From an uncultured Chloroflexia bacterium (lineage in GTDB: Bacteria; Chloroflexota; Limnocylindria; QHBO01): a stretch of 64,000 nt of DNA. A program made the translations under genes and the position numbers. The DNA is taken from contig OY969424.1 in NCBI GenBank assembly GCA_963699235.1, positions 1,850,964 to 1,914,963 of the forward strand, given 5' to 3'. Positions 21,955 through 55,100 of the stretch are shown here, in pieces. Below the pieces are notes generated by a model. It saw nothing but the letters and a program-made list of their open reading frames with translations, was not told the DNA's origin and did no database searches. The first letter of the stretch is position 1, and each line of letters opens with the position of its first letter.

Positions 21955-21989
21955 GGCAATCGTCAGCCCTTGCCGAGCCCGAGCCTGGT

Positions 21990-37089: not shown

Positions 37090-37125
37090 GGGCGGAGAAA
37101 TCTATACGATGACGCGGTGACCGTC

Positions 37126-38145: not shown

Positions 38146-39060
38146 CTAGAGGTCGTACCCATACCGCAGGAGCAGCGGCCACGTCAGCAGCGTGACCTGC
38201 GTCCGCGGCCAACGCGGGAACTGCTCCTGCCAGGCCATGTCGGCCTTCAGCGCCAGCGGGCCGCTCGACATCCGCATCGGGTTCCCCATCACGGTGTGGT
38301 TCGGCGCCAGGGTCACCGTCCCGTCGCCGATGAACCCGAAGTCGTCAGCTCCAAGCCGGTAGCCCAGCGCACCGAGGGCGCGGACGAGCTCCTCCCGCGG
38401 ACGCTGGGTGAACGTCTCGTAGCGGAGCCGGGAGATGGGCACCCGGCGGCCGAGGAGCTCGATGAAGGCGTTGTGAGCCATCCAGCGGGCGGAGGCGCCG
38501 ATCGGACCCAGGCGCAGCATGGCGACCCGCCGGCCGGGCGTGTCCGGTCGGAGGACCTCCTTCGTCCAGGAGAAGGCGACCCCCCGGCTGTCGCGGACGA
38601 GGTGGACGGTCCGGAAGTCGATGCCGGGAAGCGAGCTGACGACGAGGCCGTACCGCGGATCCTTGGACGAGTCCACGATGGTGGCTCCGTCCGAGACCTC
38701 GTCGATGCCGGCGTAGAGCCGGGTCAGGAGGTCGATGAGCCGCGGATCGGCGTTGGCCGCGGCCGACGACCGCGAGAGCACCCGGCGCAGGGCACGCGAG
38801 TGGGTCAATGACGCGAGCTCCGATTCGGCCCATTCGGGGTCCACCGTGTCCCAACCACCGAAGGCGGCTTCGCCCACCCGGCTCCAGAACGGACAGGCGC
38901 GGAAGGGCTCGCCACACCCGCAGAGCCGGTTCTCGATCAGGCCCGCGAGCCAGATGGTCCGCATCTCCCCGGTCGAGACGTAGCCCGGCACCTGGCCGAT
39001 GATGCGATCGACCAGCGTGGAGCCGCTGCGGCCGGTGCCGCCGACGAACAGGACGCCCAC
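38146..39060 (-). CDS. Sulfotransferase (PAPS-dependent, Sulfotransfer_3/Stf-like type)
   Basis: 5'-PSB loop VGGTGRSGSTLV, IVDSSKDP and HLVRDSRGVAFSW (3'-PB region). I prefer the GTG at 39060, just downstream of the upstream gene's stop (39063-39065). The 5' part of the track ORF is an out-of-frame read of that gene. Confidence 0.8.
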   Translation of the reverse strand: MGVLFVGGTGRSGSTLVDRIIGQVPGYVSTGEMRTIWLAGLIENRLCGCGEPFRACPFWSRVGEAAFGGWDTVDPEWAESELASLTHSRALRRVLSRSSAAANADPRLIDLLTRLYAGIDEVSDGATIVDSSKDPRYGLVVSSLPGIDFRTVHLVRDSRGVAFSWTKEVLRPDTPGRRVAMLRLGPIGASARWMAHNAFIELLGRRVPISRLRYETFTQRPREELVRALGALGYRLGADDFGFIGDGTVTLAPNHTVMGNPMRMSSGPLALKADMAWQEQFPRWPRTQVTLLTWPLLLRYGYDL

Positions 39061-39062
39061 GC

Positions 39063-40403
39063 TCAGTCGGGTGACTCGTCGACGATCGGGTCCGGGATGG
39101 GCCCATAGAACTGGACCTCGCTGCCCGGCTCTTCGAGGAACGGCGCGACCTGGTAACCGCCGTTGGACGTGACCGGACCGACGTGGATGTCCTGCGCCAG
39201 GGAGCCGAACTGGATGAGGTACGGGTTGCCGTCGTCGCCCTTCCCGAACGCCAGGCCGTTCAGGAGCACGCTGCCGGTCTCCTCCGTACCGTGGACCCCG
39301 AGCATGATGTGGGCCGCGCTCGTCCCGTTCGGATTGTCGTTGTCGGCGAAGGTGTCGCCCACGACGGTGAACCCGCTGCCTCCCTCGATGCTGAGACCGC
39401 CGGACCGGTTGCCTTCCCACTTGTTGCTGTTGAGGCGAGTCCGGACGCAGCCGGGCTGGAGGCGGATGCCCACACCCTGGTTGTTGTAGGCGTGGTTGAG
39501 CCGATACATCTGGGAGGCCCCCCGGCTGAGGAACCCATCCCCCTCGTTGCGGAACACGATGTTGCCCTCGATCAGCATGTCCCCGGCACGCTCGTCGTGG
39601 AGAATCCCGATGCCGAGGCCGTCGAAGACACGGTTGAACAGCACGTAGCCATCGTACGGACGGCTTCCGGTTGAGACCCCGGCAAACCGGATTCCGACCC
39701 CGCCGGACTGGGTGACCGCGTTCAGCGTCACCGTCGGCCGGGTGGCCTCCACTTCGATCCCCTGCGCCCGCTCGGCGCCGTCGACGTGGATCAGGCTGAT
39801 GAGCGTGCCGTAGGCATCCTCGGTGGCCCGGACCAGGAACTCCCCGTCGGGGAAGCTGGGACCGGGGACGATCTGCGAGCCCAACGCCGCTTCGGCGTAT
39901 CCCTGCCCGTTCCCGACGTTCATGCCCACCAGGGCCAGGCCATCCCCGGAGATGACGATCGGGGCGTTCAGCTCGAACCGGCCGCCGAGGAGCCGAACCT
40001 GCCCGCCCCCGACGCGCTCGAGGTCGATCAGCGCGGCGTTGATCTCGTCCTCGGCCGAGCCCTCGACCACGATGTCGGCCCGCTCGCGGTCGGCGCCGGA
40101 CGAGTTGGAGGCGGCAATGAGGGTGTCACTGCCGTCGGGAACATCGGGCGGGTACCAGACCGCCCCATCCAGGTTTGGGTCACCGGTTCCCGGCCCACCG
40201 ACCCCCGGTGTCGCGGACGGCGCCGGGCCGCTCGCGGAGGGAACGGCCGGAGTGGAGCTGGGAGATGCCGGGCGCGGGGTCGGTGACGAGTCGGCAGAGT
40301 CGTCGATCACCCGCCACGCGAGCGCCAGGGCGCCGACGAGGGCAACGGCCACGAGGCCACCGAGCACCAGCTGGCGTCTTCGCGATCGGGGCTCGATGCT
40401 CAT
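39063..40403 (-). CDS. Signal-anchored right-handed beta-helix repeat protein (pectate-lyase fold)
   Basis: The ATG at 40403 gives MSIEPRSRRRQLVLGGLVAVALVGALALA, then a Pro/Ser linker. Repeated rungs follow (GVGIRFAG, GIGILHDE, IEGNIVFRN, GVGIRLQPG, LNSNKWEGN, LSIEGG, VVGDTFADN). Confidence 0.75.
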   Translation of the reverse strand: MSIEPRSRRRQLVLGGLVAVALVGALALAWRVIDDSADSSPTPRPASPSSTPAVPSASGPAPSATPGVGGPGTGDPNLDGAVWYPPDVPDGSDTLIAASNSSGADRERADIVVEGSAEDEINAALIDLERVGGGQVRLLGGRFELNAPIVISGDGLALVGMNVGNGQGYAEAALGSQIVPGPSFPDGEFLVRATEDAYGTLISLIHVDGAERAQGIEVEATRPTVTLNAVTQSGGVGIRFAGVSTGSRPYDGYVLFNRVFDGLGIGILHDERAGDMLIEGNIVFRNEGDGFLSRGASQMYRLNHAYNNQGVGIRLQPGCVRTRLNSNKWEGNRSGGLSIEGGSGFTVVGDTFADNDNPNGTSAAHIMLGVHGTEETGSVLLNGLAFGKGDDGNPYLIQFGSLAQDIHVGPVTSNGGYQVAPFLEEPGSEVQFYGPIPDPIVDESPD

Positions 40404-40673
40404 TCGCGGCCGTCGGGAAAGGGGCTCGGGGGCGTGGGCATGACGGCCATTGTTACGGCAGCAGCGCCCCCTGTCACATCGCCCCACCGAAGCGGCGGTG
40501 TCAGCCGGAGCCTGGGCAATCGGTGACAGCGTGCACCGGACCTGCCTCCCGGGTGCGCTGGCCCCATCGTCATGGCTCGATGGGGCCCGAACCCCCGGGG
40601 ACCATCGACCGATGGGCTTTCCATGAACCGGCGGTCAGTCTGGCGGCAACCCCCCAACGGAAGGATGCGCCCT

Positions 40674-41918
40674 ATGACCGCACGACCTCCACGCCTCCGT
40701 CTGCCCGTCGCCTGGATCACCGCAGCAGCTCTGCTGTTGACCACCGGTGGACCAGCGCTGGCAGCTCCCAGCCCCACCGTGACCGGGTTCACGCTCATCA
40801 ATGCCGCCACCGACAAGCCGATTCCGGGCTTCGACCCCATCCGGGCCGGCGCCACCGTCGACCTGGCCGCTCTCCCCACCCGTGACCTCAATATTCGGGT
40901 CAACGCCACGGGCGGCGCGGGGAGTGTCCGGATCTCACTGAACAGCGGCGCTGCCCGGGTCGAGAACCAGGCGCCGTTCGCGATGGCGGGCGACCTGCGT
41001 GGCAACTTCCACGCCTGGACGCCGGCCGCTGGCAGCCACACCGTGAGCGCCGCTGCCTTCGCGCAGCGCAACGCCGCGGGTGCCGCGGGGCCCACCGCAT
41101 CGGTCTCCTTCTCCGTCGTCAACGGCGGTTCGACCAACCCACAGCCCCCGACGCCTGCGCCGCCGGTTCCCCAGACGAACTCGCAGTGCGGGCCGATGCC
41201 GGCCGCGGCACCGAGCGGGTGGCGTCGGGTCCTGACCGACAGCTTCAACGAGAACATCCCGCTCGGCGAGTGGGGCCGGCCCGGTGGTCAGCACGAGTTC
41301 CCCGGCGGCGTCTGGAAGGCCCGGCCTGCCGGCTACAAGGACAGCTCCGGACGTGCCACCTACAACTCGATGAAGACCACCAGCCAGCACGATGGCCTGC
41401 TGGACGTGTGGGTCCACAACGAGGGGAACGCCCGCTACGTGGCGGCCCCGATGCCGCGCGTTGGTGCCACCCTGGGCCAGCGCATCTCCATTTGCATGCG
41501 GGCTGACGTGATCCCCGGCTACAAGATCGCATTCCTCCTGTGGCCCACCGATGGAACCGGCAACTCGCGGGGTGAGATCGACTACCCCGAGGGTCGGCTG
41601 GCGGGAGCTGGAACGTCGGCCCACGCGTTCATGCACTACGACCCCAAGCCGTCAGGGGGAAAGCAGCAGGACGCCTACGACTCCAACGTGACGGTCCAGG
41701 GCTGGCACGAGTACGTGCTGGAGTGGAACCCGAAGGCCGGGTACGCAGCGTTCTATATTGACGGGCGACTCCTCGGCCGCTCCACGCGCTACGTCCCGCG
41801 CGGCGCGATGTTCTACGTCATGCAGATCGAGTCGTACGTGTCCGACCAGCCGCTCCCGGCGCACTCGAACGGCCACGTCCTGCTCGACTGGGTGACGGTC
41901 GAGGTACCGGCCTCGTAA
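40674..41918 (+). CDS. Secreted two-domain protein: an N-terminal carbohydrate-binding-like beta-sandwich and a C-terminal GH16-like/ConA-fold domain
   Basis: The ATG at 40674 has GGAAGG 9 nt upstream. The signal is MTARPPRLRLPVAWITAAALLLTTGGPALA. GEIDYPEG fits the GH16 ExDxxE catalytic pattern. A Pro-rich linker separates the two domains. Confidence 0.55.
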   Translation: MTARPPRLRLPVAWITAAALLLTTGGPALAAPSPTVTGFTLINAATDKPIPGFDPIRAGATVDLAALPTRDLNIRVNATGGAGSVRISLNSGAARVENQAPFAMAGDLRGNFHAWTPAAGSHTVSAAAFAQRNAAGAAGPTASVSFSVVNGGSTNPQPPTPAPPVPQTNSQCGPMPAAAPSGWRRVLTDSFNENIPLGEWGRPGGQHEFPGGVWKARPAGYKDSSGRATYNSMKTTSQHDGLLDVWVHNEGNARYVAAPMPRVGATLGQRISICMRADVIPGYKIAFLLWPTDGTGNSRGEIDYPEGRLAGAGTSAHAFMHYDPKPSGGKQQDAYDSNVTVQGWHEYVLEWNPKAGYAAFYIDGRLLGRSTRYVPRGAMFYVMQIESYVSDQPLPAHSNGHVLLDWVTVEVPAS

Positions 41919-41946
41919 CCCACTCGGATCAGGTTCGCGTCCAACT

Positions 41947-41979
41947 CCACCGCCCCCGCCGCCCCGGCGGGGGCGGTGG
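41947..41979 (+). terminator. Perfect 15-bp GC-rich hairpin (3-nt loop) 29 nt after the GH16-like stop; terminator candidate without a U-tract
   Basis: CCACCGCCCCCGCCG-CCC-CGGCGGGGGCGGTGG. I paired every position by hand. Confidence 0.5.
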
Positions 41980-42171
41980 GCTGAGTGGGACCTCTGTACC
42001 GGTACCGGTGGTGCGCCGACGCACCGCCAATTTGAGGGGACAGCCGACGTAAGCGCACCAGACCGCACCACACCGGCCATTGCCCTCACCGAACCCGCTT
42101 CCCAAAAGTACTTCCCCTCGACTACCCTTGCGCGGTTCTAATCTGCCGATCGTCCTCGGCGACCAATCACC

Positions 42172-42178
42172 AAGGAGG
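42172..42178 (+). promoter_or_regulatory. Shine-Dalgarno sequence AAGGAGG, 5 nt upstream of the GTG at 42184
   Basis: Read directly: CACCAAGGAGGGGAACGTG. Confidence 0.6.
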
Positions 42179-42183
42179 GGAAC

Positions 42184-42903
42184 GTGTCTGCCCACCATCG
42201 TGCTCATCGGCGCGGCCTGCGCTGGGGCATTGCCGGAATCCTTGCCTCGATGCTCATGCTCACGGCATCCTCCGTGGTCCTGGGCGCCGGCGTCCCGACG
42301 GATCCCGACCCGGATCTCGTCTGTCCCGACGGCCACGGCTTTGGCCTGGTCACCAAGTACGTCACCACGGTCAACACGCCGGCGGATTCCAAGGACTGGT
42401 GGGTGAGCGTCGAGTTCGAGGTTGCCGACGACGGCGACCATCACGCCAACTGCGAGATCAGCCTGGGAAGCTACGAGCTGCCGGGGCCGGACTTCTCGCT
42501 CCCACAGACGCTCTTCGGCGGTGAGACCGGCGTCTTCGGCGTCGGGACCCACACCCTGACCGTCCCTCTGCCCCTCGAGCTCAACCAGCCGGGCTGCTTT
42601 GCGCAGTACGACTTCGTCTTCGGTCCGCTGATCGAGGAGCTGACCCTGCCCGACCACTACGGCGACCGGCAGATCCGTGCCCGGATCGTCGGAACCGAGG
42701 CCTGCCCGGCCGACCCGGTCGTCCCGCCGGATCCGCCGAAGCCTGATGGTGGCACCCAGGGTGGCACCGGACTGCCGAACACGGCCATGGCACCCACCTC
42801 GTCCAGCGACCTGGCCCCCACGTTCGCCCTGCTCCTGGTGGCGTCTCTCTCCACCATGGGTATGCTGAACGTACGAGCGGTCCGCGCTCGCCGGGCCCGC
42901 TGA
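42184..42903 (+). CDS. Secreted protein with a C-terminal sortase-type sorting signal (LPNTA, hydrophobic helix, Arg-rich tail)
   Basis: N-terminal signal/TM GLRWGIAGILASMLMLTASSVVLGAG. The C-terminus is GGTGLPNTAMAPTSSSDLAPTFALLLVASLSTMGMLNVRAVRARRAR. Confidence 0.65.
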   Translation: MSAHHRAHRRGLRWGIAGILASMLMLTASSVVLGAGVPTDPDPDLVCPDGHGFGLVTKYVTTVNTPADSKDWWVSVEFEVADDGDHHANCEISLGSYELPGPDFSLPQTLFGGETGVFGVGTHTLTVPLPLELNQPGCFAQYDFVFGPLIEELTLPDHYGDRQIRARIVGTEACPADPVVPPDPPKPDGGTQGGTGLPNTAMAPTSSSDLAPTFALLLVASLSTMGMLNVRAVRARRAR

Positions 42904-42963
42904 CAGCCGGGAGACCGTCAGCCACCGACAGGGAGTTGCCCGCTCGCCCGCGGGCAGGGTGTT

Positions 42964-43509
42964 ATGAGATTCGTCGAGACGCCGCTGCGCGGCGTGATGG
43001 TGGTCGAGCTCGAGCCACGTGAGGACGAGCGCGGGTTCTTTGCCCGAGCCTTCGACGTGAAGGAGTTCACGGAGGCCGGCCTGAACCCGCGAGTGGTGCA
43101 GTCCAACCTCTCGCACAACCTCCGCCGAGGGACGGTGCGCGGGTTCCACTACCAGCGCCCGCCACACGCCGAGGCGAAGCACATCCGCTGCATCCGCGGC
43201 GCCGCCTTCATGGCAGTGGTCGACATCCGGCCCGACAGTCCGACTCACCTCCAGCACACCGCGGTCGAGCTCCGGGCCGGCGACCGCCGCAGCCTCTACG
43301 TGCCGGAGGGGTGCGCGCCGGGCCTCCAGACCCTGGAGGACGTGACCGAGCTCCTCTACAACGTGAGCGAGTTCTACACCCCGGAGGCGGAGGGCGGCCT
43401 GCGCTACGACGACCCGGCGCTCGGGATCGCCTGGCCCCTGCCCGTCTCCGCCATCTCCGAGAAGGACGCCGCCTGGCCGTACCTTGAGCTGACCGCGGCC
43501 CGGTCATGA
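42964..43509 (+). CDS. NDP-4-keto-6-deoxy-sugar 3,5-epimerase (RmlC-like cupin)
   Basis: GVMVVELEPREDERGFFARAF, VRGFHYQ, KHIRCIRGAAFMAVVDIR, SLYVPEGCAPGLQTL and YDDPALGIAWP. Confidence 0.85.
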   Translation: MRFVETPLRGVMVVELEPREDERGFFARAFDVKEFTEAGLNPRVVQSNLSHNLRRGTVRGFHYQRPPHAEAKHIRCIRGAAFMAVVDIRPDSPTHLQHTAVELRAGDRRSLYVPEGCAPGLQTLEDVTELLYNVSEFYTPEAEGGLRYDDPALGIAWPLPVSAISEKDAAWPYLELTAARS

Positions 43510-44805
43510 TCATTGTCGACCGAGCGCTGGCCGAGCGCGCGGCGGCGGGACGCCCGGTCCAGGTCGGGATGGTCGGTGCCGGGGCCATGGGCCGCGGCAT
43601 CGCGCGCCAGATGTTCCGCGCCTTCCCGGGGCTGCGCCTCGCCGCGGTCGCCAACCGGACGACGGAAAACGCCGTCCGGGCCTATGCCGAAGCAAAGCAG
43701 CCCGATGTCGACCACGTCGGGTCGGCCGCCGAGCTGGAGGCGGCGATCGGCGCGGGCCGGTTCGCGGTCACCGACGACCCGTTCGTGATCACCGAGGCGC
43801 CGTCTATCGAGGCGGTGGTCGAGGTCACCGGCACGGTCGAGCACGCGACCCATGTCGTCGAGTCGGCCATCGCCCACGGCAAGCATGTCATCCTCATGAA
43901 CGCTGAGCTGGACGGCACGATCGGGCCGATCCTGAAAGCGCAGGCTGATGCGGCCGGGGTCATCCTGACCGCCTGCGACGGGGACCAGCCGGGGGTCGAG
44001 GCCAACCTCTATCGGTTCGTGCAGGGCATCGGCCTGCGGCCGCTGGTGTGCGGGAACATCAAGGGCTTGCAGGATCCGTATCGGACTCCCACCACCCAGG
44101 CGGGCTGGGCGGAGCAGTGGGGCCTCGGGGTCAAGATGGTGACGAGCTTCGCCGACGGGACGAAGGTCTCGTTCGAGCAGGCGATCGTGGCCAACGGAAC
44201 CGGGATGCGGGCCCCGAAACGGGGCCTGTACGCCTGGGACCACACCGGCCACGTGGACGAGCTGACGACCCGCTATGACCTGGACGAGCTGCTGCGGCTG
44301 GGCGGGATCGTGGACTACGTCGTCGGCGCCCAGCCGGCGCCCGGCATCTACGTGATCGGCCACCCACGACGATCCGCTCGAGCAGCACTACATGAAGCTC
44401 TACAAGCGCGGTGACGGCCCGCTCTACTCGTTCTACACCCCGCAGCACCTCTGCCACTTCGAGGTGCCCACCTCGGTGGCGCGGGCCGTTCTCCTCAACG
44501 ACCCGGTCCTGGCCCCGCTCGGCGGCCCGGTGGTGGAGGTGGTGGCCACCGCCAAGCGGGATCTGGCGGCCGGCGAGGAGCTCGACGGCATCGGCGGCTA
44601 CACGACCTATGGGCAGTGCGACAACGCCGACGTCGTGCAGGACGAGACCCTCCTGCCGATGGGCATCTCGGAGGGCTGCGCCGTGGTGCGCCCGGTCGCC
44701 AGGGACGCGGTTCTCACCTACGCCGATGTCGAGCTGCCCCCGGGCCGTCGGGTTGACCAGCTGCGCATCGAGCAGGCCGAGCGCTTCGCGATGGCACCCC
44801 GATGA
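43506..44805 (+). pseudogene. NAD-binding (homoserine-dehydrogenase-like) oxidoreductase with a C-terminal SAF domain, split by a +1 frameshift at the CCC run 44363-44365 (or a sequencing indel)
   Basis: Track ORFs 43506-44414 and 44392-44805 are two halves of one protein. The first half ends ...VDYVVGAQPAPGIYVIGH. In the next frame it continues HDDPLEQHYMKLYKRGDGPLYSFYTPQHLCHFEVP. Deleting one C from CACCCACGAC restores a single ~432-aa frame. Confidence 0.65.
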
Positions 44806-45884
44806 CCGCCCGGTTCTCGATCTTCATCCCCATCTACAACGACGGCCGCTGGCTGGCCGGCGCCATCGAGAGCGTCCTGGCCCAGACCCACGGCGAATGG
44901 GAGCTCGTGATCGGCGACAACGCCTCCACCGAACCGATCGAGCCGGTCGTCCGCCAGTTCCACGATCCCCGGGTCCGGTACCACCGCTGGGACACGCACG
45001 TGCCCATCGACGAGAACTTCAACCGAACCGCGCTCCTGACCCGCCACGAGTGGGTCCAGTTCCTCGGCGCCGATGACCGGCTCCATCCCGGCTGCCTGGC
45101 CCGGATGGCCGCCGCGATCGACGAGTGGAGCTCACCCACCCGGTTGGCGATGGTGGTCACCGCCTGCCGCCGAGTGGACCCCGACGGCCGCTCGGCGGAC
45201 CACATCTGGTACGGGACCCGGCCGCGATGGCAGGTTCTGGGCGGAACCTACGACTCGGCGACCTGGTTCGGCATCCACCTCCAGGACGGGAACCCGCCGT
45301 GGAACGTGGGGTCGGTCGCCGTGGCCCAGGACGTCTTGTCGGAGAGCGGCGGATTCTTCCGGCCCGAGGTCGGGCTGTCGGCCGACGTCGAGCTCTCCCT
45401 CCGAGCCGCGGCCTATGGATCGGTCGCGTACATCGATGAGCCGCTCCTCGACTTCATGGTCCGTCCCGACGCCGACAACTCGATGCGGTTGTGGATGAAC
45501 CGATCTCGGAACGACCAGCGGACGCCGATCGAGGTCGCCCTCCTGGCCGGGCTCCGCATCCACCGCCACCAGCGCGAGGTATCGGCTGCGGAGGAGCGCC
45601 GGCTCCGAGGCGTGATCGCCCGGTCGCACCTGCAGCGAGCGGCCCAGCACCGCGTGCTGGAAGGGGGTCGCGGACGACGTGGCGCGGCGCGTGACATCCG
45701 CACTGCCATCCGCTGGAGCCCCCGCGCGGTCCTCAGCCCGTACCACGCCCTCTATGCCTTGGCCGCGCTCGTCGCCCCGCGACGGCTCCTCGACGCCGCC
45801 AGGCGACGCCTGTCCCCGGATCAGGAGGTCCTGGAGCCCGTCGCCGGAGTGGGCGGATCGGCTCCGGAAAGCACCGCCCGGTAG
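44802..45884 (+). CDS. Glycosyltransferase family 2
   Basis: FSIFIPIYNDGRWLAGAIESVLAQTHGEWELVIGDNAST and FLGADD (DxD). The start forms an ATGA overlap with the upstream gene. Confidence 0.85.
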   Translation: MTARFSIFIPIYNDGRWLAGAIESVLAQTHGEWELVIGDNASTEPIEPVVRQFHDPRVRYHRWDTHVPIDENFNRTALLTRHEWVQFLGADDRLHPGCLARMAAAIDEWSSPTRLAMVVTACRRVDPDGRSADHIWYGTRPRWQVLGGTYDSATWFGIHLQDGNPPWNVGSVAVAQDVLSESGGFFRPEVGLSADVELSLRAAAYGSVAYIDEPLLDFMVRPDADNSMRLWMNRSRNDQRTPIEVALLAGLRIHRHQREVSAAEERRLRGVIARSHLQRAAQHRVLEGGRGRRGAARDIRTAIRWSPRAVLSPYHALYALAALVAPRRLLDAARRRLSPDQEVLEPVAGVGGSAPESTAR

Positions 45885-46990
45885 ATCGCCATCACCCGGG
45901 ACGCGCATTCGTCCCAGCTCGGCAGTCGTGGGGGCTCGTGGGCATCAGCCGGAGCCTCGAGCTGCTGCAGCAGCGCTCGGGCGATCTCCTCGCTGTCGGC
46001 CGACTGCTCGACCGCCACCGCCTGGGGCAGGTCCGCCACCTCGGCCAGCGCGGTCCCACGGCTGACCACGATCCGGCAGCCGAGCGCCAGGGCCTCGTGA
46101 ATTGCGAGCCCCTGCGACTCGTAGTCGCTCAGCAGGGCGACGACCTGGGCGCGAGCCAGCAGGCCTGACACGTCGGCCCGGGATGCGGAGCGAATCTCGA
46201 CCGCGTGGTCCACTCCACAGGCGATGGCCCGCTCACGGAGCGCCTTCTGGTAGGGACCGCTGCCAAGGACGAGGATCCGGGCATCGGAGTGGCGCTCGCG
46301 GACAAGCGGAAGCGCCTCGATCAACCGGTGGTGGCCCTTGTATCGCTCGAGGCGACCGACCGACAGAATCAGGCCCGGCTCCCGGGTCAGCGGCTCCGCG
46401 CGCTCGGGCTCCGGGATGTCCGACCCATTCGGGATGACGGCGAACCGGCCGCCGGGCAGACCCAGCCGCCGCGAGAACTCGGTGGCCTCGAAGCGCGAGA
46501 CGGCGATCAGGCGGTCGGCACCGGCCAGCTGCCGCCGAAGGGCGCGCAGCTGCACGGGTCGAATCGCACGCCGAATCCGCGACGAGTGGCCGCCGGAGTG
46601 AAGGGTGACGACGTACGGGATGCGCGCCCGCCTGGCCGCGGCCATGGCCAGCGGTGGCACGAACGTGTGGTAGCCCTGGCAATGGACGAGATCGGCAGTC
46701 GTGGACCGAACCCGGCGATAGATCTCCGGGGCGATGTAGAGGTCACTGCCTGGCGGTCCGGCCGGGACCCGGACGACGCGCACGCCGTCCACCACCTCCC
46801 GTGGCGGGAGGCGGCGGTCGAGGTCCGTGGTCAGGACCTGGACTTCGAAGGCGCCGTCGGCGGCGACCCGGCGTGAGAGCTCGCGGGTGTGCGTTTCCAC
46901 CCCACCGGTGTACGGCGGAAATCGGTGCGCGACCATGAGCACCCGGATGGGACGGTCCTGCGCCTCGGCTGCCCGGCCGGGACGAGTCAT
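45821..46990 (-). CDS. Glycosyltransferase family 4
   Basis: From the ATG at 46990 (ATGA overlap with the upstream GT2): IRVLMVAHRFPPYTGGVETH, GRLERYKGHHRLIEA and ESQGLAIHEALALGCRIV (E-x7-E). The remainder of the 591-aa track ORF is an out-of-frame read of the GT2 gene. Confidence 0.85.
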   Translation of the reverse strand: MTRPGRAAEAQDRPIRVLMVAHRFPPYTGGVETHTRELSRRVAADGAFEVQVLTTDLDRRLPPREVVDGVRVVRVPAGPPGSDLYIAPEIYRRVRSTTADLVHCQGYHTFVPPLAMAAARRARIPYVVTLHSGGHSSRIRRAIRPVQLRALRRQLAGADRLIAVSRFEATEFSRRLGLPGGRFAVIPNGSDIPEPERAEPLTREPGLILSVGRLERYKGHHRLIEALPLVRERHSDARILVLGSGPYQKALRERAIACGVDHAVEIRSASRADVSGLLARAQVVALLSDYESQGLAIHEALALGCRIVVSRGTALAEVADLPQAVAVEQSADSEEIARALLQQLEAPADAHEPPRLPSWDECASRVMAIYRAVLSGADPPTPATGSRTS

Positions 46991-47967
46991 TGGGCCGGGC
47001 CGGGCCGGGGCTCGCGCTCTGGTTCCGCGGACCGCTCTCCCGCCCCGAGCCGGCCGGCGATGTAGCCCGCCACCGTGAACCCGAGGCCCGCCGCGATCGC
47101 GCCGGCCTTCCGAGCGTCCTCCAGTCCGGCACCGCGCAGGGCGGTCTCGAGATTGCGAGCCATGCCGCGCGGGAGGGTCACGGCCGCATGGCGGCGCTCC
47201 GAGGCAAGGCCCGAATCGGCGCCCACAAGCGTGGTGATCCGCGCCTTCGACCGGCCTTCGGCCAGGCAGCGGGCGCGGAAGTAGTCCCACGTGGCCCGCT
47301 CGGCCCGTACCCGGTGGCTGACGTTCGCCGCCGGCTGGTAGAGGAGGACACGGTCCGGCATGGCGCGACGGAGCCGGATACAGAACTCGGTCTCCTCCCC
47401 GCCGACCGGCCGGCGGCCGACGCGCCCGATGCTGGTGTCGAACCCGCCGGCGGCGGCAAAGGCCTCGCGCCGGAAGGACATGTTGCAGCCCAGCGGGTTC
47501 CTGATCTGGGCAAGGTGGGTTGGCAGACCCCGATAGCTGCAGCCGACGACCCAGTCGAACTCCTCCGGGAACCACTCGGGGCGCCCGGTGTCCCACGCCG
47601 GGGTCGCCGAGCCGCCGACGCCGACCACCCGTCGATCGCGGTAGGGATCAGCCAGGGCGGCCAGCCACCCCGGGCTCGCGACCGCGTCGTCATCGAGGAA
47701 GGCGACGATGGGACCGGTGGAAGCGGCCACGCCGGCGTTGCGCGCATCCGACAGGCCCTGGCGGCCGGTGTTCGGGACGACCCGAACCGCCGAGTGGGCG
47801 GCGGAAACGCGGGCGCCGAGGGCGTCGTTGTGGTCGGTGACCACGATCGTTTCCATCGGCGGCAGGGTCTGGTCTCGAACGGAGTCGAGGGCGCGGACGA
47901 GATCGTCCCACCGGTCGTCGGCGAAGGCGCAGATGACGACCGAGAACTCGGCCCGCGGCGTGCTCAC
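46987..47967 (-). CDS. Glycosyltransferase family 2
   Basis: FSVVICAFADDRWDDLVRALDSVRDQT, GLSDARNAG, AFLDDDA (DxD) and GGEETEFCIRL. Confidence 0.85.
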   Translation of the reverse strand: MSTPRAEFSVVICAFADDRWDDLVRALDSVRDQTLPPMETIVVTDHNDALGARVSAAHSAVRVVPNTGRQGLSDARNAGVAASTGPIVAFLDDDAVASPGWLAALADPYRDRRVVGVGGSATPAWDTGRPEWFPEEFDWVVGCSYRGLPTHLAQIRNPLGCNMSFRREAFAAAGGFDTSIGRVGRRPVGGEETEFCIRLRRAMPDRVLLYQPAANVSHRVRAERATWDYFRARCLAEGRSKARITTLVGADSGLASERRHAAVTLPRGMARNLETALRGAGLEDARKAGAIAAGLGFTVAGYIAGRLGAGERSAEPEREPRPGPAQ

Positions 47968-49286
47968 CCGAATGCGGCCTCGATCTGGTCGGCCTCGTCC
48001 ACGGCGGGCGCGAGGTGCGCCCCACCGGGCGGCGGTCGCATCGCGACCCAGAGCATCGGCAGCATGAACACCGCCTGCAGCATGAGAACCCCGAACCGGG
48101 CCCAGGCGAATCCCTCGAGGCCCCCCAGCTCAGCGCCGATGACCGCGGCCCCCAGCTCCATGACGAGGGTGATGACGCCAACCACCGCGGCGCGCGAGAC
48201 GGAGCCACGCACCCGGTGAATGGCGATCCAGTGGTCCTTGACCAGGACAGGCAGCGCGCTGACCGCCAGGATGACGACGGTCGGGTAGGCGTTGGCATAT
48301 GACTGGCCGAAGAACCCGATGACCCATGGGCCGAAGACCAGGAGCACGAGTGTCCCGAAGACAGTGGCGAGCGCACAGAAGCCAAGCGTGAAGCGGATCT
48401 GCCGCCACAGGGTGTCCGGGGCGCGGGCGCCGACGATGTAGAGGGTGAACGTCGCCTCCTTGCCGAGCAGGAGGATGAGGTTGGAGATGAGGAACGCGAT
48501 GTAGAACGCCGCGTTCTCCTCGGCCGAGATCGCGATCGTGACCAGGAGCGGCAGGAGCCAGACCGATGCCGACCGCGACAGGTTGACGACGTGGTGGGCA
48601 AGGGCGTCGGGGGCCATGGCCCGCAGGCGATGCCACATCAGGGGCCGGATGTCGCCGGTCAGGCGGGCGTTGTGGACCAGGACGATCACGACCCCCAGGG
48701 ACAGGAGCATGCCGGCGAACCAGGCGAGGTAGATGCCCATCCCGTCGTCCCAGATGGTCGCCGCCGCGAGGACGGCGAGAACGGGCAGGCGTCCGATGCC
48801 GAAGATCGTGTTTCGGATCAGCTGCATGAGCCGCTGGTTGACCGAGACCAGCACCTGGTCGAGGACCGATGTCAGTGCCGTGACCCCGACACCCAGGGCG
48901 AAGACGACGATGGCCAGCGGCTGGGCCAGCGGGGCGAGGTCCTCGGACAGCAGCGGGGCCAGCACGGCAAAGACCACGCCGAGCACGAGCCCGGTGATCG
49001 CCGCGGCCAGGGTGGCGGTCACCGCGAGGGACGCGACCCGCTCCTCCTTGTGCAGGATGCCGGCGAGCGCGGTGCCCAGGCCGAGCATGGCCACCTGGGA
49101 GAGGAACAGCATCGACGACACGGCGGCGCCGGCCAGGCCGATGGCCTGGACCGAGTAGCCCTGAGCCGCGATCCACCAGAAGATGAAGCCGGTCCCGCTC
49201 GTGAGCAGGCTGGCGGCGAACAGACCGGTGGTCGCGCCGATGGTCCACCGGAATGGCGCGAGGCGAGCCGGCCAGGCGAGGTTCAT
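47964..49286 (-). CDS. Polysaccharide biosynthesis/flippase protein (MOP superfamily), copy 3
   Basis: From the ATG at 49286 (MNLAWPARLAPFRW...): about 12-14 TM helices across 440 aa. The start of the next gene overlaps its stop (ATGA type). Confidence 0.7.
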   Translation of the reverse strand: MNLAWPARLAPFRWTIGATTGLFAASLLTSGTGFIFWWIAAQGYSVQAIGLAGAAVSSMLFLSQVAMLGLGTALAGILHKEERVASLAVTATLAAAITGLVLGVVFAVLAPLLSEDLAPLAQPLAIVVFALGVGVTALTSVLDQVLVSVNQRLMQLIRNTIFGIGRLPVLAVLAAATIWDDGMGIYLAWFAGMLLSLGVVIVLVHNARLTGDIRPLMWHRLRAMAPDALAHHVVNLSRSASVWLLPLLVTIAISAEENAAFYIAFLISNLILLLGKEATFTLYIVGARAPDTLWRQIRFTLGFCALATVFGTLVLLVFGPWVIGFFGQSYANAYPTVVILAVSALPVLVKDHWIAIHRVRGSVSRAAVVGVITLVMELGAAVIGAELGGLEGFAWARFGVLMLQAVFMLPMLWVAMRPPPGGAHLAPAVDEADQIEAAFG

Positions 49287-49359
49287 GCGGGGACGGCCAC
49301 GTCGGGCCGGCTTGCGCGACGCGGCGGGACGTCTGCGCGCGCGGCCTCGTCGGCCCGGG

Positions 49360-50298
49360 TCATGCGACGCTGCGGGCGTCCGGGCGGGGCGTGGCAGCCG
49401 GCAACCAGCGGGAGAGATCGCGTCCCAGCAGCTCGCCGAGGCGCTGGACTTCGGGCGCAAGCTCGGTCGTGAGCCGTTCGCGGACCGAGCGGTCCAGCGG
49501 CGGCCGCTCGTAGGGGCGGCTGTTGGCGGACAGCACCTTCGCCCGCAGCTGATGGGCCAGCGGGGCGCGGCGGAGGAGGGGAATGAAGCGGGCCAGCGGG
49601 GCGGGCGGGCGTACGACGAACGACTGCAGGGAGGAGTTGACCGGGCGCTTGGACTCGTTCACGCGTTCGAAGGATGGCCGAAAACCGTCGTCCACGCCAA
49701 GGAACCGCACGACCTCGAGGTAGGCGGCTTCCGGATCGCGGATGAAGTCGTCGAACAGGAGGATCTTCACCCGATCAGGGCCGAACTCGGCCAGGTAACG
49801 CTCGACCTGGTCGGCGAACCGGACCGTGTCGCGATAGAACAGGGCCTCGGGGCGGCGCGTTGGGCCGAGGCGTCGTCCCGCACGTCGATCGGGCTCGGCC
49901 GCCAGGGCATCCTCGAAGTCGTCCAGCTCTTCGCCGCCGTAGAAGACGAGCTCGCCGTGGAGCGAGTACATCACGTCCACCGGGTTCCGCAGCATGATGA
50001 TGATCTGGGCATCTGGCGAGAACTCGTGGATCTCGCGCGGCGCATCGGTCGAGTACAGGTACCAGGTGCTCGCCTCGCCGACGCGCTGACCTGGCTTCGC
50101 CGGGCGGAAGAGCCGCAGGTAGTCCGCCTCGGTCAGGCGGCCGTGGATGGTGGCCAGGTCGGCGCCGAAGTACATCGGCTCCTTGTGCTCGGGCATGAAC
50201 ACGTCCGGGTGGCGCCGAAGGTACTCGTACATCGCCGTCGTTCCACAGCGTGGGGCGCCGACGATGAAGAAATCGGGCCGCGGCTCGATCCCACCCAT
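49360..50298 (-). CDS. Sulfotransferase (Sulfotransfer_1-like, heparan-sulfate-sulfotransferase-type fold)
   Basis: From the ATG at 50298: PDFFIVGAPRCGTTAMYEYLRRHPDVFMPEHKEPMYF (5'-PSB loop) and IIIMLRNPVDVMYSLH (3'-PB). It is unrelated in sequence to the sulfotransferase at 38146-39060. Confidence 0.85.
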   Translation of the reverse strand: MGGIEPRPDFFIVGAPRCGTTAMYEYLRRHPDVFMPEHKEPMYFGADLATIHGRLTEADYLRLFRPAKPGQRVGEASTWYLYSTDAPREIHEFSPDAQIIIMLRNPVDVMYSLHGELVFYGGEELDDFEDALAAEPDRRAGRRLGPTRRPEALFYRDTVRFADQVERYLAEFGPDRVKILLFDDFIRDPEAAYLEVVRFLGVDDGFRPSFERVNESKRPVNSSLQSFVVRPPAPLARFIPLLRRAPLAHQLRAKVLSANSRPYERPPLDRSVRERLTTELAPEVQRLGELLGRDLSRWLPAATPRPDARSVA

Positions 50299-51302
50299 CA
50301 ATCCACCTCCGCGAACAGGATGCGAGATCCGTGCGCCTCGAAGCGGACGGGGATGCTGCTCAAGTCCGGCAGGGCGTCGAGAACCCGGTTCCGGGCTTCG
50401 CCTTCGGCCAGGAACATGAGGAAGCCGCCGCCGCCGGCGCCGCACAGCTTGCCGCCTATGGCTCCCGCGCCCATTCCGGAGGCATACCACGCATCGATCT
50501 CCTCGGTGGAGATGGCGCTTGCGAGGCCGCGCTTGAGCTGCCAGCCAGCATCGAGGATGGCTCCGAAGCGCGCGAAGTCCGGCTCCGGCGTAGCCATGAG
50601 CGCCTGCAACTCGTAGGCCTGGTCACGCATCCGGTCCAGCACGTCTCGGTGCTCCGGCGTTCGCTCCCGCTGCTCGACCAGCACCGAGCTGGCGCGGCGC
50701 TGGTGCCCGCTCCAGAGCATGAGCAGCCGGTCGAACAGGTGATCGACCGACCCGTTCACCCCGCGGTGCGGATGTACGGTCACGTCGCCACCCGGGCGGA
50801 AGGCAAACAGGTTGAGGCCGCCGAAGGCGGCGGCGTACTGGTCCTGCTTCCCGACAGGCTGGGCGAGCATCTCGATCTCGACCGTCGACGCCTCATCGGC
50901 CAGTTGAGAGGGAGTGACACGTTCGCCCTGGAATGTGTGGAGGGCGTTGAGCAGGCCAACGGCGAAGGCGCTCGAGCCTCCCAGGCCCGAGGAGTCGGGA
51001 AGGTCGCTGACCACGCTGACGTAGATCGGTGGCTCGATCTCCAGCAGCCGGAGGCACTCGCGGGCAACGTCGTTGCGGATGGCATCGATGGAGCTGACCG
51101 ACTCGCTGACCGAGTAGTTGAGTCGGACCTTCTCGTCGAAGACCTCGCCGTGGCGCTTGACGGTCACGTAGACGTACTTGTCGATGGTGGTACTGAACAC
51201 CGCGCCGTGGTCGACGTCGTAGTGGGCGGACAGGTCGGTCCCACCCCCCGCGAAGCTGACCCGGAGCGGAGTCCGGCTCATGACGATCCCCCGCCCGCTC
51301 AT
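50298..51302 (-). CDS. hddA: GHMP-family sugar kinase, D-glycero-alpha-D-manno-heptose-7-phosphate kinase type
   Basis: SRTPLRVSFAGGGTD, the GHMP motif LPDSSGLGGSSAFAVG, VGKQDQYAAAFGG and GGKLCGAGGGGFLMF. There is an alternative start at 51281. Confidence 0.8.
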   Translation of the reverse strand: MSGRGIVMSRTPLRVSFAGGGTDLSAHYDVDHGAVFSTTIDKYVYVTVKRHGEVFDEKVRLNYSVSESVSSIDAIRNDVARECLRLLEIEPPIYVSVVSDLPDSSGLGGSSAFAVGLLNALHTFQGERVTPSQLADEASTVEIEMLAQPVGKQDQYAAAFGGLNLFAFRPGGDVTVHPHRGVNGSVDHLFDRLLMLWSGHQRRASSVLVEQRERTPEHRDVLDRMRDQAYELQALMATPEPDFARFGAILDAGWQLKRGLASAISTEEIDAWYASGMGAGAIGGKLCGAGGGGFLMFLAEGEARNRVLDALPDLSSIPVRFEAHGSRILFAEVD

Positions 51303-52351
51303 CAGGCGGTCATCCCCTCACCGACGCGCCATCGGAGCGCTTCGTCGAGCGTGCCCTCCTCGATGAGCCTGGCGAGACGCTTGAGTCGGGTGTATCGGTC
51401 GCTGGTGAAGGCCTCGTACGTCAGGCCCAGTTGGCGGAAGGTCGAGGCCAGCTCGACGGCACCACGCTCGGCGTTGTGCTCAAAGGTGAAGCCCGGGAAG
51501 GTCCGCCCGAACTTCGCGAAGCTGGTCTGGTAGGTCCGCTGGTCGGCGTCGGGCACGGCCCGGATCTCGAGGGTGGCCTCCGGCACGGCGCGCTGGACAG
51601 CCTGGGCGAGGTCGCGGACCTGCTGGTTGAGCTCGTCGGCACCGACGTTGAACGCCTGGTTGTGGATGGCGTCGGCTGGCGCGTCGAGGGCGGCGAGGAA
51701 GGCCCGCGCCACGTCGTGGACGTGGACGAGCGGGCGCCACGGCGTGCCGTCGCTCATCACCGTGATGGTGCCGTTGGTGACGGCCATCCCGGTGAGGTTG
51801 TTCAAGACGGTGTCGAACCTCATCCGCGGCGAGACGCCGAAGATCGTGCCGTTGCGCAGGAAGATCGGCGAGAAGGTAGGCGTCGCCAGGGTGGCGATGG
51901 CGCGCTCGGCGACGACCTTGGAGCGGGCGTACTCGGTCTGGGGATCGAGTGGCGAGTCCTCATCCACGGCTCCCCCCTCGGCCATCCCGTACATGATGCA
52001 GGAGGAGGAGAACAGGAACCGCTCCACGCCCGCGTCACGGGCCAGCTCGGCGAGGCGGACCGTTGCGTCCACGTTGATGTCCGCCGTCCAGGCCGCGTTC
52101 AGGTTGCCGATCGGGTCGTTGCTGAGCGCTGCGAGGTGGACGACGGCGTCGAAGCCGCGCAGGTCGTCGGCCGTGACGTCACGGACGTCCCGCTCGATCG
52201 ACGGGATGTCGGCAAGCGGCATGAGGTCGCAGCCCCGGAAGAAGTCGACGTCCAGGCCGACCACGTCGTGGCCGGCATCGCGGAAGGCGGGCGCCATGAC
52301 TGCCCCCACGTAGCCGCGATGGCCGGTCATGAGGACCCGGCGGGCGGTCAT
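51302..52351 (-). CDS. NAD-dependent NDP-sugar epimerase/dehydratase (extended SDR)
   Basis: From the ATG at 52351 (ATGA overlap): RVLMTGHRGYVGAVM (a GxxGxxG variant), and YARSK (YxxxK). Confidence 0.85.
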   Translation of the reverse strand: MTARRVLMTGHRGYVGAVMAPAFRDAGHDVVGLDVDFFRGCDLMPLADIPSIERDVRDVTADDLRGFDAVVHLAALSNDPIGNLNAAWTADINVDATVRLAELARDAGVERFLFSSSCIMYGMAEGGAVDEDSPLDPQTEYARSKVVAERAIATLATPTFSPIFLRNGTIFGVSPRMRFDTVLNNLTGMAVTNGTITVMSDGTPWRPLVHVHDVARAFLAALDAPADAIHNQAFNVGADELNQQVRDLAQAVQRAVPEATLEIRAVPDADQRTYQTSFAKFGRTFPGFTFEHNAERGAVELASTFRQLGLTYEAFTSDRYTRLKRLARLIEEGTLDEALRWRVGEGMTA

Positions 52352-53565
52352 CGGGACACCCCCGCCGCCGCGGCGCTCGTCAGCTCGCGAGCGTGGAACA
52401 GGAGGCTGGCCGTGTCGTGGACCGCGCGGTAGGGCGCGCCGGCAGCGAACGCGGCCTGGCCGTCCCGCTCGTCGTCGCCGATGAACGGTGTCCGGCTGAG
52501 GTCGAGCTGAAACTCGTGTTGGGCGTCGAACAGCATCCCCGGGCTGGGCTTGCGACAGGCGCATCCCGCCTCCCAGTCGTGGGGGCAGTGATAGATGGCA
52601 TCGATCTGCCCGCCGGCGTCGGCTGCCTCGCGGACCATGCGCTCGTGGACGGCGGCCAGGTCCGCCTCGGTCATGACCCCGCGGCCGATGCCGGCCTGGT
52701 TCGAGACGACCACCACCCGGTAGCCCGCGTCGTGGAACAGGCGGAGGGCCTCGAGGCTGCCGTCGAGCCAGCGGAAGTCGGACGGGGTCCGCACGTACTC
52801 CGCCTGCGGCGGACGCTCGTTCAGGACGCCGTCGCGATCCAGGATCACGGTGGGCCGACGGGCCAGGAATTCCTCGGTCAGGGGCAGACGGTGCATGGAC
52901 CCGACACTGTAGTAGCGATGCTCGGAAACGTGCGCGCCGAGCCTCCGGTTGGCCGTCAGCCGCGGGTAGAGCGCCTCTTCCACCAGCTCGTCGCCATCGG
53001 GCGGCAGCAGGCTGAGGACCGGCTTGGGCAGGATGGCGTAGCTGATCTCGACGCCGGCCAGGTTCGCCGTGGTCCGGCTCCGGTCGTAGGCCTCGAGGAG
53101 CCCGTCAGGCCCCGTCCGGGTGTTGCTCCGGGAGTAGCCGTCGGAGTTGGCGTAGATGGTGACCATGGCCGGCGCGCCGACCCGCAGGTAGTGATCCCAC
53201 AGCCGCTCCATGTCGAGCGGCCAGTAGATGTCGCAGTACAGCAGCAGGAAGAGCGGGTCGAGGCGGTCCTCGACGACCTGGAGCCGGCGTGCGGTGAGGT
53301 CGTCGGGGTCCGTCACCGAGTAGTCGATCCGGATCCCGAATCGCGAGCCGTCCCCGAAGTGGTCCTGGATTACCTCGGGCAGGTAGCCGAGGAGCATGAG
53401 GACGCGCTCGAAGCCCTGCTCGGCCAGAAGCTCGACCGTGTACTCGAGGAACGGCCGGCCGTGGAACTCGATCATCGGCTTGGGACGGTCGTCGGTCAGC
53501 GGCCGCATGCGCGTGCCTCGACCGCCGGCGAGGATGACCGCCTGCCGGGGGCGCTCAGGGGACAT
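52348..53565 (-). CDS. Bifunctional fusion: sugar-1-phosphate nucleotidyltransferase (HddC-like) plus D,D-heptose-1,7-bisphosphate phosphatase (GmhB, HAD)
   Basis: The N-terminal half has AVILAGGRGTRMRPLTDDRPKPMIEF. The C-terminal half has VILDRDGVLNE (HAD motif I), VVSNQAGIGRG, and the GmhB zinc motif HCPHDWEAGCACRKPSPGML. Confidence 0.8.
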   Translation of the reverse strand: MSPERPRQAVILAGGRGTRMRPLTDDRPKPMIEFHGRPFLEYTVELLAEQGFERVLMLLGYLPEVIQDHFGDGSRFGIRIDYSVTDPDDLTARRLQVVEDRLDPLFLLLYCDIYWPLDMERLWDHYLRVGAPAMVTIYANSDGYSRSNTRTGPDGLLEAYDRSRTTANLAGVEISYAILPKPVLSLLPPDGDELVEEALYPRLTANRRLGAHVSEHRYYSVGSMHRLPLTEEFLARRPTVILDRDGVLNERPPQAEYVRTPSDFRWLDGSLEALRLFHDAGYRVVVVSNQAGIGRGVMTEADLAAVHERMVREAADAGGQIDAIYHCPHDWEAGCACRKPSPGMLFDAQHEFQLDLSRTPFIGDDERDGQAAFAAGAPYRAVHDTASLLFHARELTSAAAAGVSR

Positions 53566-54342: not shown

Positions 54343-54429
54343 CGCCACCGGGTGCAGCTCGGTCCGGGCACGACCGTTGCTCGCGGCGGCAGCGGCGGCC
54401 GTAACCACGGCGGCCTCCGACAGCGGCCG

Positions 54430-55100
54430 ACGTCGCTCGCGGAAGATCGCCCGCAGTACCCGCCAGCCGTCGGGAATGGTTCGGAGGCGACCGATGCCCA
54501 TGACCCGGCGGTCCTCGAAGCTGGGGACCTCCTGGACACGGAGGCCGGCGCGCAGGGCCCGGATGTTCATCTCGGTCTCGATCTCGAAGCCATCGCCATT
54601 CAGGGCGAGGACCGGCAGGTGACGGCGCCAGAAGGCGTTGTAGCCGTAGCACAGGTCGGTGTAGCGCCCGCCGTAGAAGCATGCGGACGAGGCGGACGAA
54701 GGTGGCGTTGCCCAGGCGGCGGTGGATGGGCATGTCGCTGGTGCCGGCGCCGTGAAGGAAGCGGGACCCCTTGGCGAAGTCTGCCCCGGCCAGGAGCGCG
54801 TTGACGAACATCGGGATCTCGGCGGGATCGGTCGAGCCGTCGGCGTCGAGCATCACGATGATGTCGCCGGTGGCGGCCGCGAATCCGGAGCGCAGGGCCG
54901 CGCCCTTGCCGGTGCCCTCCTGCTGAACGATGCGGATCGTCGGAATCAGCTCACGGGCGACTTCGGCGGTGCGATCCACGGAGGCGCCGTCGACCAGGAT
55001 GACCTCGTCCACGCTGGCTCGGCACCCGCGGCAGGACGTGGGGGAGGTTCAGCTCTTCGTTGAGAGCGGGAATGATGACGCTGACCGTAACGCGTGACAT
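54430..55100 (-). pseudogene. GT2 (polyprenol-phosphate-sugar-synthase-like) gene carrying two frameshifts; the last segment runs on into gmhA
   Basis: Segment 1 starts at the ATG at 55100 (SD AAGGTGG): MSRVTVSVIIPALNEELNLPHVLPRVPS. Segment 2 begins after a shift near 55013-55016: VDEVILVDGASVDRTAEVA...IIVMLDADGSTDP...FVRLVRML. Segment 3 begins after a shift near 54676-54682: YGGRYTDLCYGYNAFWRRHLP...GFEIETEMNIRALRAGLRVQEVPSFEDRR. The three segments lie in three different frames. Confidence 0.6.

Follow-up and report, generated by a model that had tools for sequence, protein, structure and literature searches.

Sulfated polysaccharides in bacteria are described in papers from 2021 to 2026 as essentially confined to cyanobacteria (PMC8205485, PMC13390465). 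The synechan (xss) cluster on plasmid pSYSM of Synechocystis sp. PCC 6803 encodes two sulfotransferases of distinct subfamilies, XssA and XssE, and in its product each repeat of eight sugars bears two sulfates (PMC8205485). In Actinoplanes missouriensis, the Wzx/Wzy cluster wps-1 (WpsA-K) contains 'two sulfotransferases in different families', namely WpsB and WpsH; both are needed if sporangia are to be normal, and sulfation is stated as unverified in that paper (PMC13390465). Here we describe a related arrangement in a 64,000-nucleotide stretch of DNA, referred to below as the window, from an uncultured Chloroflexia bacterium (GTDB lineage Bacteria; Chloroflexota; Limnocylindria; QHBO01; assembly GCA_963699235.1, contig OY969424.1, positions 1,850,964 to 1,914,963), in which two sulfotransferase genes, here named ST-A and ST-B, and the genes around them form one glycan locus. 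With a probability of roughly 65%, ST-A and ST-B are active cytoplasmic sulfotransferases dependent on 3'-phosphoadenosine 5'-phosphosulfate (PAPS), which each add one sulfate to a heptose-containing envelope glycan carried on a polyprenyl lipid.

ST-B is classed as a heparan-sulfate-type sulfotransferase of the PF00685 branch. Its open reading frame (ORF) is intact, contains the motifs IVGAPRCGTT and MLRNPVDVMYS, and matches PF13469 (65 bits) as well as PF00685 (53.5 bits, cut-off 22), with more than 3,100 homologues at E ≤ 1e-3. Residues H38, K39, E40, P41, R104 and P106 do not vary across 51 aligned homologues, and conservation is at least 90% for N105 and for G19, T20 and T21 of the 5'-phosphosulfate-binding loop GAPRCGTT, which directly follows strand 1 and aligns to the loop of solved enzymes. 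The AlphaFold2 (AF2) model has a predicted local distance difference test (pLDDT) score of 91, and its top Foldseek matches in the PDB are all sulfotransferases. The structure 3RNL matches at E 1.4e-45 by sequence and with a template modelling (TM) score of 0.88 in Foldseek, while 3-OST is reached by phmmer at E 8e-7, and 3-OST and NDST by Foldseek at E 3e-11 to 1e-9. These matches bear out an earlier sequence-only reading of the window, which had likened ST-B to heparan-sulfotransferases. Furthermore, the Glu in the AEPHFF segment of 3-OST-3 is matched in the alignment by the invariant E40. Hydropathy analysis found no transmembrane segment, hydrophobic segment or signal peptide in ST-B, and its start codon lies inside a TGATG where the gene overlaps that of the heptose kinase, with GGAGG in front, which points to translational coupling.

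ST-A is assigned to a large uncharacterised PF13469 subfamily. PF13469 is its sole Pfam match (34 bits, cut-off 27), more than 4,600 homologues are found at E ≤ 1e-3, and the ORF is intact, with the motifs quoted earlier present in FVGGTGRSGSTL and HLVRDSRGVAFS. In an alignment of 57 homologues, conservation of R11, S12, G13, T15 and E32 is complete or at least 90%, and R156, D157, R159 and S164 of the 3'-phosphate-binding motif are invariant. The 5'-phosphosulfate-binding loop GTGRSGST again directly follows strand 1 and aligns to the loop of solved enzymes. The AF2 model (pLDDT 93) also has only sulfotransferases as its top PDB matches in Foldseek, led by the sulfotransferase domain of an olefin synthase (OLS, 4GOX) and by CurM (4GBM), followed by TPST1 and TPST2 (E 1.7e-6, TM 0.55) and then by Stf9. 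Searching the PDB with the single sequence gave chance FKBP matches only, and the family profile was needed to reach 4GOX (E 7.7e-12). The Glu in the PPELH segment of the OLS and CurM sulfotransferases is matched by the invariant E32; we regard E32 of ST-A and E40 of ST-B as candidate catalytic bases. ST-A also carries an insert in which C47-x-C49...C56, together with H255, is invariant in 57/57 aligned family members, and this Cys3-His set is a possible structural metal (zinc) site that would define the subfamily. As in ST-B, hydropathy revealed no transmembrane segment, hydrophobic segment or signal peptide, and the start codon lies 2 nt past the stop codon of the beta-helix gene, indicating tight coupling.

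Much of the sequence-only reading is confirmed by these data: both ORFs are found on the minus strand, intact and with the quoted motifs; their PAPS-binding residues are conserved; profile searches and structure prediction recover a sulfotransferase fold for each; and two PAPS-type sulfotransferases of different subfamilies do stand in one glycan locus. That reading saw no similarity between the two, which is true at the sequence level (BLASTP E 0.5; profile-profile probability in hhalign 2.4%), but its term 'unrelated families' was too strong. Both proteins match PF13469 and the same solved folds (4GOX, 4GBM and TPST), and ST-A and ST-B are therefore divergent members, on distant branches, of one superfamily. 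The label 'Stf-like' for ST-A did not hold, since there is no Stf0-family match in Pfam and the single-sequence PDB search returned no Stf protein; in Foldseek, Stf9 (E 1.4e-4), Stf1 (E 3.6e-3) and Stf0 (E 1.7e-2) rank behind CurM/OLS and TPST. The proposal of two sulfation positions or acceptors for the two enzymes agrees with synechan, where two distinct-subfamily sulfotransferases go with two sulfates per repeat (PMC8205485).

The resemblance to synechan extends to the individual enzymes. The ST-B family profile matches XssA over the whole length of ST-B with a probability of 99.4% (E 4.8e-22, 268 columns), and BLASTP aligns XssA and ST-B at 26% identity (E 7e-21), while the ST-A family profile matches XssE at 95% (E 2.5e-8). 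The crosswise profile comparisons fail, with 4.6% for the ST-A family against XssA and 33% for the ST-B family against XssE. As the straight matches succeed and the crosswise ones do not, the pair in the window mirrors the XssA/XssE pair.

Related contigs of the Limnocylindria retain the block ST-B, ten-transmembrane (10-TM) protein, GT2, GT4 ... beta-helix, ST-A at 49-69% protein identity, and in one of them (L001) an RmlA/RmlB-like, 6-deoxyhexose-type set stands in place of the heptose genes with both sulfotransferases retained. A scan with one genome per species found ST-A relatives in at least 582 stretches, most of them in Actinomycetota, with carriers that include Modestobacter, Blastococcus, Geodermatophilus and Kribbella. 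In 48 of the 82 loci examined, the ST-A relative has an ST-B-like gene (27-33% identity) no more than 10 kb away. Neighbours were counted in the 35 genome loci with full flanks, where Wzx was found in 25, Wzy in 23, an ST-B-like gene in 19, GT2 and Wzz in 18 each, a priming transferase in 15, GH26 in 11, CysN in 9 and WecG in 8. This company of Wzx, Wzy, glycosyltransferases and ST-B-like enzymes suggests glycans as the acceptors of the ST-A subfamily, even though its nearest solved relatives have other substrates. As a separate observation, in Kribbella sp. CA-294648 a gene for a large secreted protein with a phosphodiesterase/sulfatase fold and Ig domains (L076, 12639-15242) lies between the ST-A homologue and a heparan-sulfate-type sulfotransferase, in a cluster that also contains CysD and CysN.

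The host is a small soil Limnocylindria bacterium, whose genome is one 2.09-Mb contig with an estimated completeness of 88.9% and contains ST-A and ST-B as its only sulfotransferase matches. No reductase for PAPS or adenosine 5'-phosphosulfate (APS) (PF01507) was found in this genome, and 14/14 control genomes were positive, which suggests that sulfation rather than sulfur assimilation is the purpose of PAPS synthesis. A dedicated supply adjoins the locus in the form of Sat and CysC, of which Sat has an apparent frameshift. Within a sample of 201 genomes of the class, the ST-A family occurs in 4, the ST-B family in 26 (with up to six tandem copies) and APS kinase in 39. APS kinase follows ST-B almost perfectly, being present in 25 of the 26 ST-B genomes (Fisher p = 7e-21, ignoring shared ancestry), and in the window's own family not a single genome has APS kinase without ST-B. 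Six genomes (G078, G108, G162, G165, G183 and G198) have 5-6 tandem ST-B paralogues, many of which share a contig with APS kinase, and far more heavily sulfated glycans are predicted for such Limnocylindria than for the window. A sulfated glycan as an obligatory ligand of CWB2 proteins was rejected as a general rule of the class: CWB2 occurs in 32/201 genomes and ST-B in only 9 of these 32, so that no general dependence exists.

Table 1. Features of the sulfotransferase locus and its surroundings, in window coordinates. TM, transmembrane.
Feature	Position	Strand	Basis and remarks
ST-A, 304-aa predicted soluble sulfotransferase	38146..39060	minus	Pfam, conservation, AF2, Foldseek
ST-B, 312-aa predicted soluble heparan-sulfate-type sulfotransferase, XssA homologue	49360..50298	minus	Pfam, PDB, AF2, Foldseek
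DHH/DHHA1 protein, NrnA-like	56934..58265	plus	Pfam; NCBIfam NrnA 77 bits, below cut-off
ATP sulfurylase Sat	55930..57085	minus	PUA-like N-domain and catalytic domain in different frames; Pfam, NCBIfam
APS kinase CysC	55397..55933	minus	Overlaps Sat stop codon; Pfam; NCBIfam 281 bits, above cut-off
GT2-GmhA fusion (sedoheptulose-7-P isomerase domain)	53572..55100	minus	Pfam, NCBIfam, tblastn of L002 relative
HddC-GmhB fusion (sugar-1-P nucleotidyltransferase and heptose bisphosphate phosphatase)	52348..53565	minus	Pfam, NCBIfam
SDR epimerase/dehydratase, probable nucleotide-heptose tailoring	51302..52348	minus	Pfam, NCBIfam
HddA-like GHMP kinase (heptose 7-phosphate kinase)	50298..51302	minus	Pfam, NCBIfam, junction sequence
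10-TM membrane protein, candidate flippase/polymerase	47964..49286	minus	Hydropathy, synteny
GT2 glycosyltransferase, AglG-like (lipid-linked sugar)	46987..47967	minus	Pfam; NCBIfam AglG 226 bits, below cut-off
GT4 glycosyltransferase, 389 aa	45821..46990	minus	Pfam, gene call
Second GT2 glycosyltransferase	44802..45884	plus	Pfam
DRL/SAF oxidoreductase	43506-44805	plus	Pfam, NCBIfam, tblastn of intact relative
RmlC-like 3,5-epimerase	42964-43509	plus	Pfam, NCBIfam
Small protein with N-terminal and C-terminal hydrophobic segments	42184-42903		
Secreted GH16-like protein	40572..41918	plus	Pfam, synteny
Membrane-anchored right-handed beta-helix protein	39063..40487	minus	Pfam, TM segment, synteny
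Rce1-like CAAX protease	37359-38108	plus	Pfam, hydropathy, synteny in L001, L004, L005
94-aa 2-TM protein	37078-37362	plus	Hydropathy
11-TM 626-aa membrane protein	35209-37089	minus	Hydropathy, synteny in L001, L004, L005
Aldo/keto reductase	beyond 11-TM protein, before CWB2 genes		
Two 3xCWB2 wall proteins	29435-33418		

The genes of the locus (Table 1) fall into a minus-strand run, which comprises Sat, CysC, GT2-GmhA, HddC-GmhB, SDR, HddA, ST-B, the 10-TM protein, the AglG-like GT2 and GT4, followed by a stretch of mixed strands with the second GT2, DRL-SAF, the RmlC-like epimerase, the small 42184-42903 protein, the GH16-like and beta-helix proteins, ST-A, the Rce1-like protease and the 11-TM protein. 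The NrnA-like DHH gene is divergent from Sat, a homologue adjoins the cluster in L002, and its product is a candidate phosphatase for 3'-phosphoadenosine 5'-phosphate (pAp), clearing the sulfotransferase by-product. The intact L002 relative of GT2-GmhA is a 533-aa protein in which a GT2 resembling polyprenol-phosphate-sugar synthases is joined to GmhA by a linker rich in Asn, Gly and Asp; in the window the counterpart is spread over three frames and is not one open frame. The 10-TM protein gene adjoins ST-B in all relatives, and in those from Limnocylindria the beta-helix gene is conserved as the upstream neighbour of ST-A. Neither the 10-TM nor the 11-TM protein could be given a family by Pfam (E up to 1), NCBIfam or BLASTP against the window's Wzx and Wzy and against XssH. 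The RmlC-like epimerase and the DRL/SAF oxidoreductase are probable nucleotide-sugar tailoring enzymes. The best score of the AglG-like GT2 is to haloarchaeal AglG, the dolichyl-phosphate-glucose glucuronosyltransferase of S-layer N-glycosylation, and this resemblance hints that a hexuronic acid may be added to a lipid-linked sugar.

The window has a G+C content of about 69%. Third-position G+C is about 0.75 at 2-9 kb (DegT, Bac_transf, Wzx) and at 16-28 kb (GT4, ATP-grasp, Wzz, Wzx, Wzy, AsnB), and about 0.88-0.92 from 28 kb on, including the housekeeping G6PD and OpcA genes. The lower values at 3000-28000 suggest that the upstream glycan regions, and not the sulfation locus, are the more recently acquired ones.

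Taken together, these genes suggest a pathway in which Sat and CysC would make PAPS for sulfation, while GmhA, HddA, GmhB-HddC, the SDR protein, the RmlC-like epimerase and DRL-SAF would provide a nucleotide-heptose, probably in a remodelled form. The repeat would then be assembled by the GT2, GT4 and GT2 glycosyltransferases, and ST-A and ST-B would each add a sulfate, at a different position or to a different sugar, at the inner face of the membrane. As both enzymes are predicted to be soluble and PAPS is cytoplasmic, sulfation would take place before export, with the lipid-linked repeat as the substrate or, with lower probability, a precursor. Two enzymes so divergent, along with the stoichiometry of synechan, most likely mean that two positions are sulfated, or two sugars. 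The 10-TM and 11-TM proteins might subsequently export the glycan, polymerise it or attach it, the beta-helix and GH16 proteins might trim it outside the cell, and the NrnA-like DHH protein may clear pAp.

Several observations weigh against such a sulfated glycan. The sulfated product of this locus, like that of its close relatives, is a prediction from genes. The 35-58 kb block has no Wzx, Wzy or priming transferase that can be recognised; genes for Wzz, Wzx and Wzy are situated 10-20 kb off, at 19790-26113, and a priming transferase at 3133-4173, in regions of different codon usage. The match of ST-A to XssE is confined to the C-terminal 143 columns, and deletion of xssE itself barely altered synechan output (PMC8205485). 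Moreover, mapping intact relatives on the window revealed four apparent frameshifts, at ~44358 in DRL-SAF, at ~54676 and ~55017 in GT2-GmhA and at ~56730 in Sat, which, if real, would break the supply of both PAPS and heptose. Each of these genes is a single intact gene in the relatives, and the sites span ~13 kb with none in a long homopolymer. The locus might accordingly be decaying and lack a sulfated product, with Sat, GmhA and DRL-SAF as pseudogenes, a view that also suits the result that ST-A, ST-B and APS kinase were found in none of the 8 same-genus genomes sampled. We regard decay as quite improbable, since ST-A, ST-B, the glycosyltransferases, HddA, HddC-GmhB and CysC are intact and keep their invariant residues; the absence from same-genus genomes marks the locus as a variable trait. 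Assembly indels are the more likely source of the frameshifts, being favoured by the recovery of the genome as a single contig at 88.9% estimated completeness and by split genes in L003 and other related long contigs.

The acceptor of ST-A raises a further difficulty. The sequence-only reading had asked whether the closest characterised homologues act outside glycans, and for ST-A this is half the case, as its nearest solved structures, at only 14-19% identity, use as acceptors not sugars but acyl chains on acyl carrier protein (ACP) in CurM and OLS and protein tyrosine in TPST. Only ST-B might then act on the glycan, and ST-A might have a protein or peptide as its acceptor, comparable to the tyrosine sulfation by TPST or RaxST, with the 42184-42903 protein or the CWB2 proteins as candidate targets and the adjacent Rce1-like protease taking part in their maturation. 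TPST1 and TPST2 are among the best fold and profile matches of ST-A and share its Arg-type loop (GRSGST), and in L001, L004 and L005 ST-A is likewise followed by the Rce1-like protease gene. Nevertheless, we find this rather unlikely: outside Limnocylindria the Rce1-like neighbour is absent and ST-A relatives lie in Wzx/Wzy/glycosyltransferase clusters in 31/35 of the full-flank loci, no precursor peptide or peptide exporter was found near ST-A, the enzyme is cytoplasmic while the candidate targets are secreted, and its identity to TPST is 14-18%. It is also unlikely that one or both enzymes modify a small molecule or lipid, such as a nucleotide-sugar, a glycolipid (as Stf0 and NodH do) or a hydroxy-acyl chain (as CurM does). 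The CurM and OLS domains do top both the sequence and the fold matches of ST-A, NodH, a lipo-oligosaccharide sulfotransferase, likewise belongs to PF13469 (PMC11625862), and the coupling of ST-B to the heptose kinase gene would suit action on a precursor. However, the conserved block has no polyketide synthase, ACP or lipid-synthesis genes according to Pfam, the two sulfotransferases are conserved together with glycosyltransferases and polytopic membrane proteins, and the exchange of heptose genes in L001 argues against a role specific to heptose precursors. The conserved gene context outweighs the low identity of ST-A to non-glycan enzymes, and sulfation of an envelope glycan by both ST-A and ST-B remains the preferred explanation.

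A more specific version of that explanation, to which we give only a slim chance, is that the product is a wall-bound sulfated heptoglycan, that is a secondary cell-wall polymer and no loose exopolysaccharide, which serves as the anionic ligand of the two CWB2 proteins whose genes lie just upstream. The presence of ST-B in only 9 of the 32 CWB2-bearing genomes weakens this idea. Phosphate has such a role for CWB2 proteins in Clostridioides, and pyruvate for S-layer homology (SLH) proteins in Bacillus; if the idea were true, sulfate would take the place of either. The Cys3-His insert of ST-A may in that event be a metal site that marks a new class of sugar acceptor.

The pairing of XssA-like and XssE-like subfamilies recurs in Chloroflexota and widely in Actinomycetota. 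The rarity of sulfated envelope glycans, as assumed in the sequence-only reading, stands for published chemistry (PMC13390465, PMC8205485) and is overstated for genomes, given ST-B relatives in 26/201 genomes of the class and pairs of ST-A with ST-B-like genes in dozens of Actinomycetota species. In soil monoderms, such glycans become a trait open to testing that is probably common and variable between strains, and the ST-A subfamily, with >4,600 relatives and no characterised member, is a clear target for enzymology. For the single window, the outcome is a solid annotation and no surprise.

The nearest solved relative of ST-B, 3RNL from Alicyclobacillus acidocaldarius, is itself uncharacterised and has no known substrate. 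Animal 3-OST-1, -3 and -5 and NDST1 superpose on ST-B with TM scores of 0.59-0.64 at 18-20% identity, with the EP(x)(x)F region of the candidate catalytic Glu and the RNP(x)D 3'-phosphate-binding motif aligned, and the 5' loop of ST-B has Arg in place of Lys. ST-A aligns with CurM, OLS (4GBM, 4GOX) and TPST1/TPST2 in the RSGST loop, in a Glu about 20 residues further on and in a C-terminal G(D/N)P, but it differs from them in its 14-19% identity and TM of about 0.55-0.6, and in being a free-standing protein of glycan clusters with a Cys3-His insert.

At the level of whole clusters, the window and synechan each pair two sulfotransferases of distinct subfamilies among glycosyltransferases. They differ in phylum, since the window belongs to the Chloroflexota, a monoderm lineage in which no outer-membrane export step is expected, and in chemistry, with a GDP-heptose pathway where synechan relies on hexose/rhamnose chemistry. 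In addition, the block has no recognisable Wzx, Wzy or polysaccharide co-polymerase (PCP) and no XssQRS regulator, and the Cys3-His insert of ST-A is unaligned with XssE. The likeness to wps-1 lies in a monoderm glycan cluster with one heparan-sulfate-type sulfotransferase similar to ST-B, and sulfation is inferred from genes in both. The Actinomycetota ST-A loci match wps-1 in composition, as they contain GT2, WecG, GH26, Wzx, Wzy and Wzz along with a sulfotransferase of the heparan-sulfate type; they have only the two sulfotransferases in common with the window and differ from it in glycosyltransferases, heptose pathway, beta-helix, GH16 and membrane proteins. To conclude, the two-enzyme design is not new, as it already exists in cyanobacteria and actinomycetes, and the locus is a sulfated-glycan cluster of the synechan and wps-1 kind, set apart by its phylum, by a block without identifiable Wzx/Wzy and by its heptose pathway.

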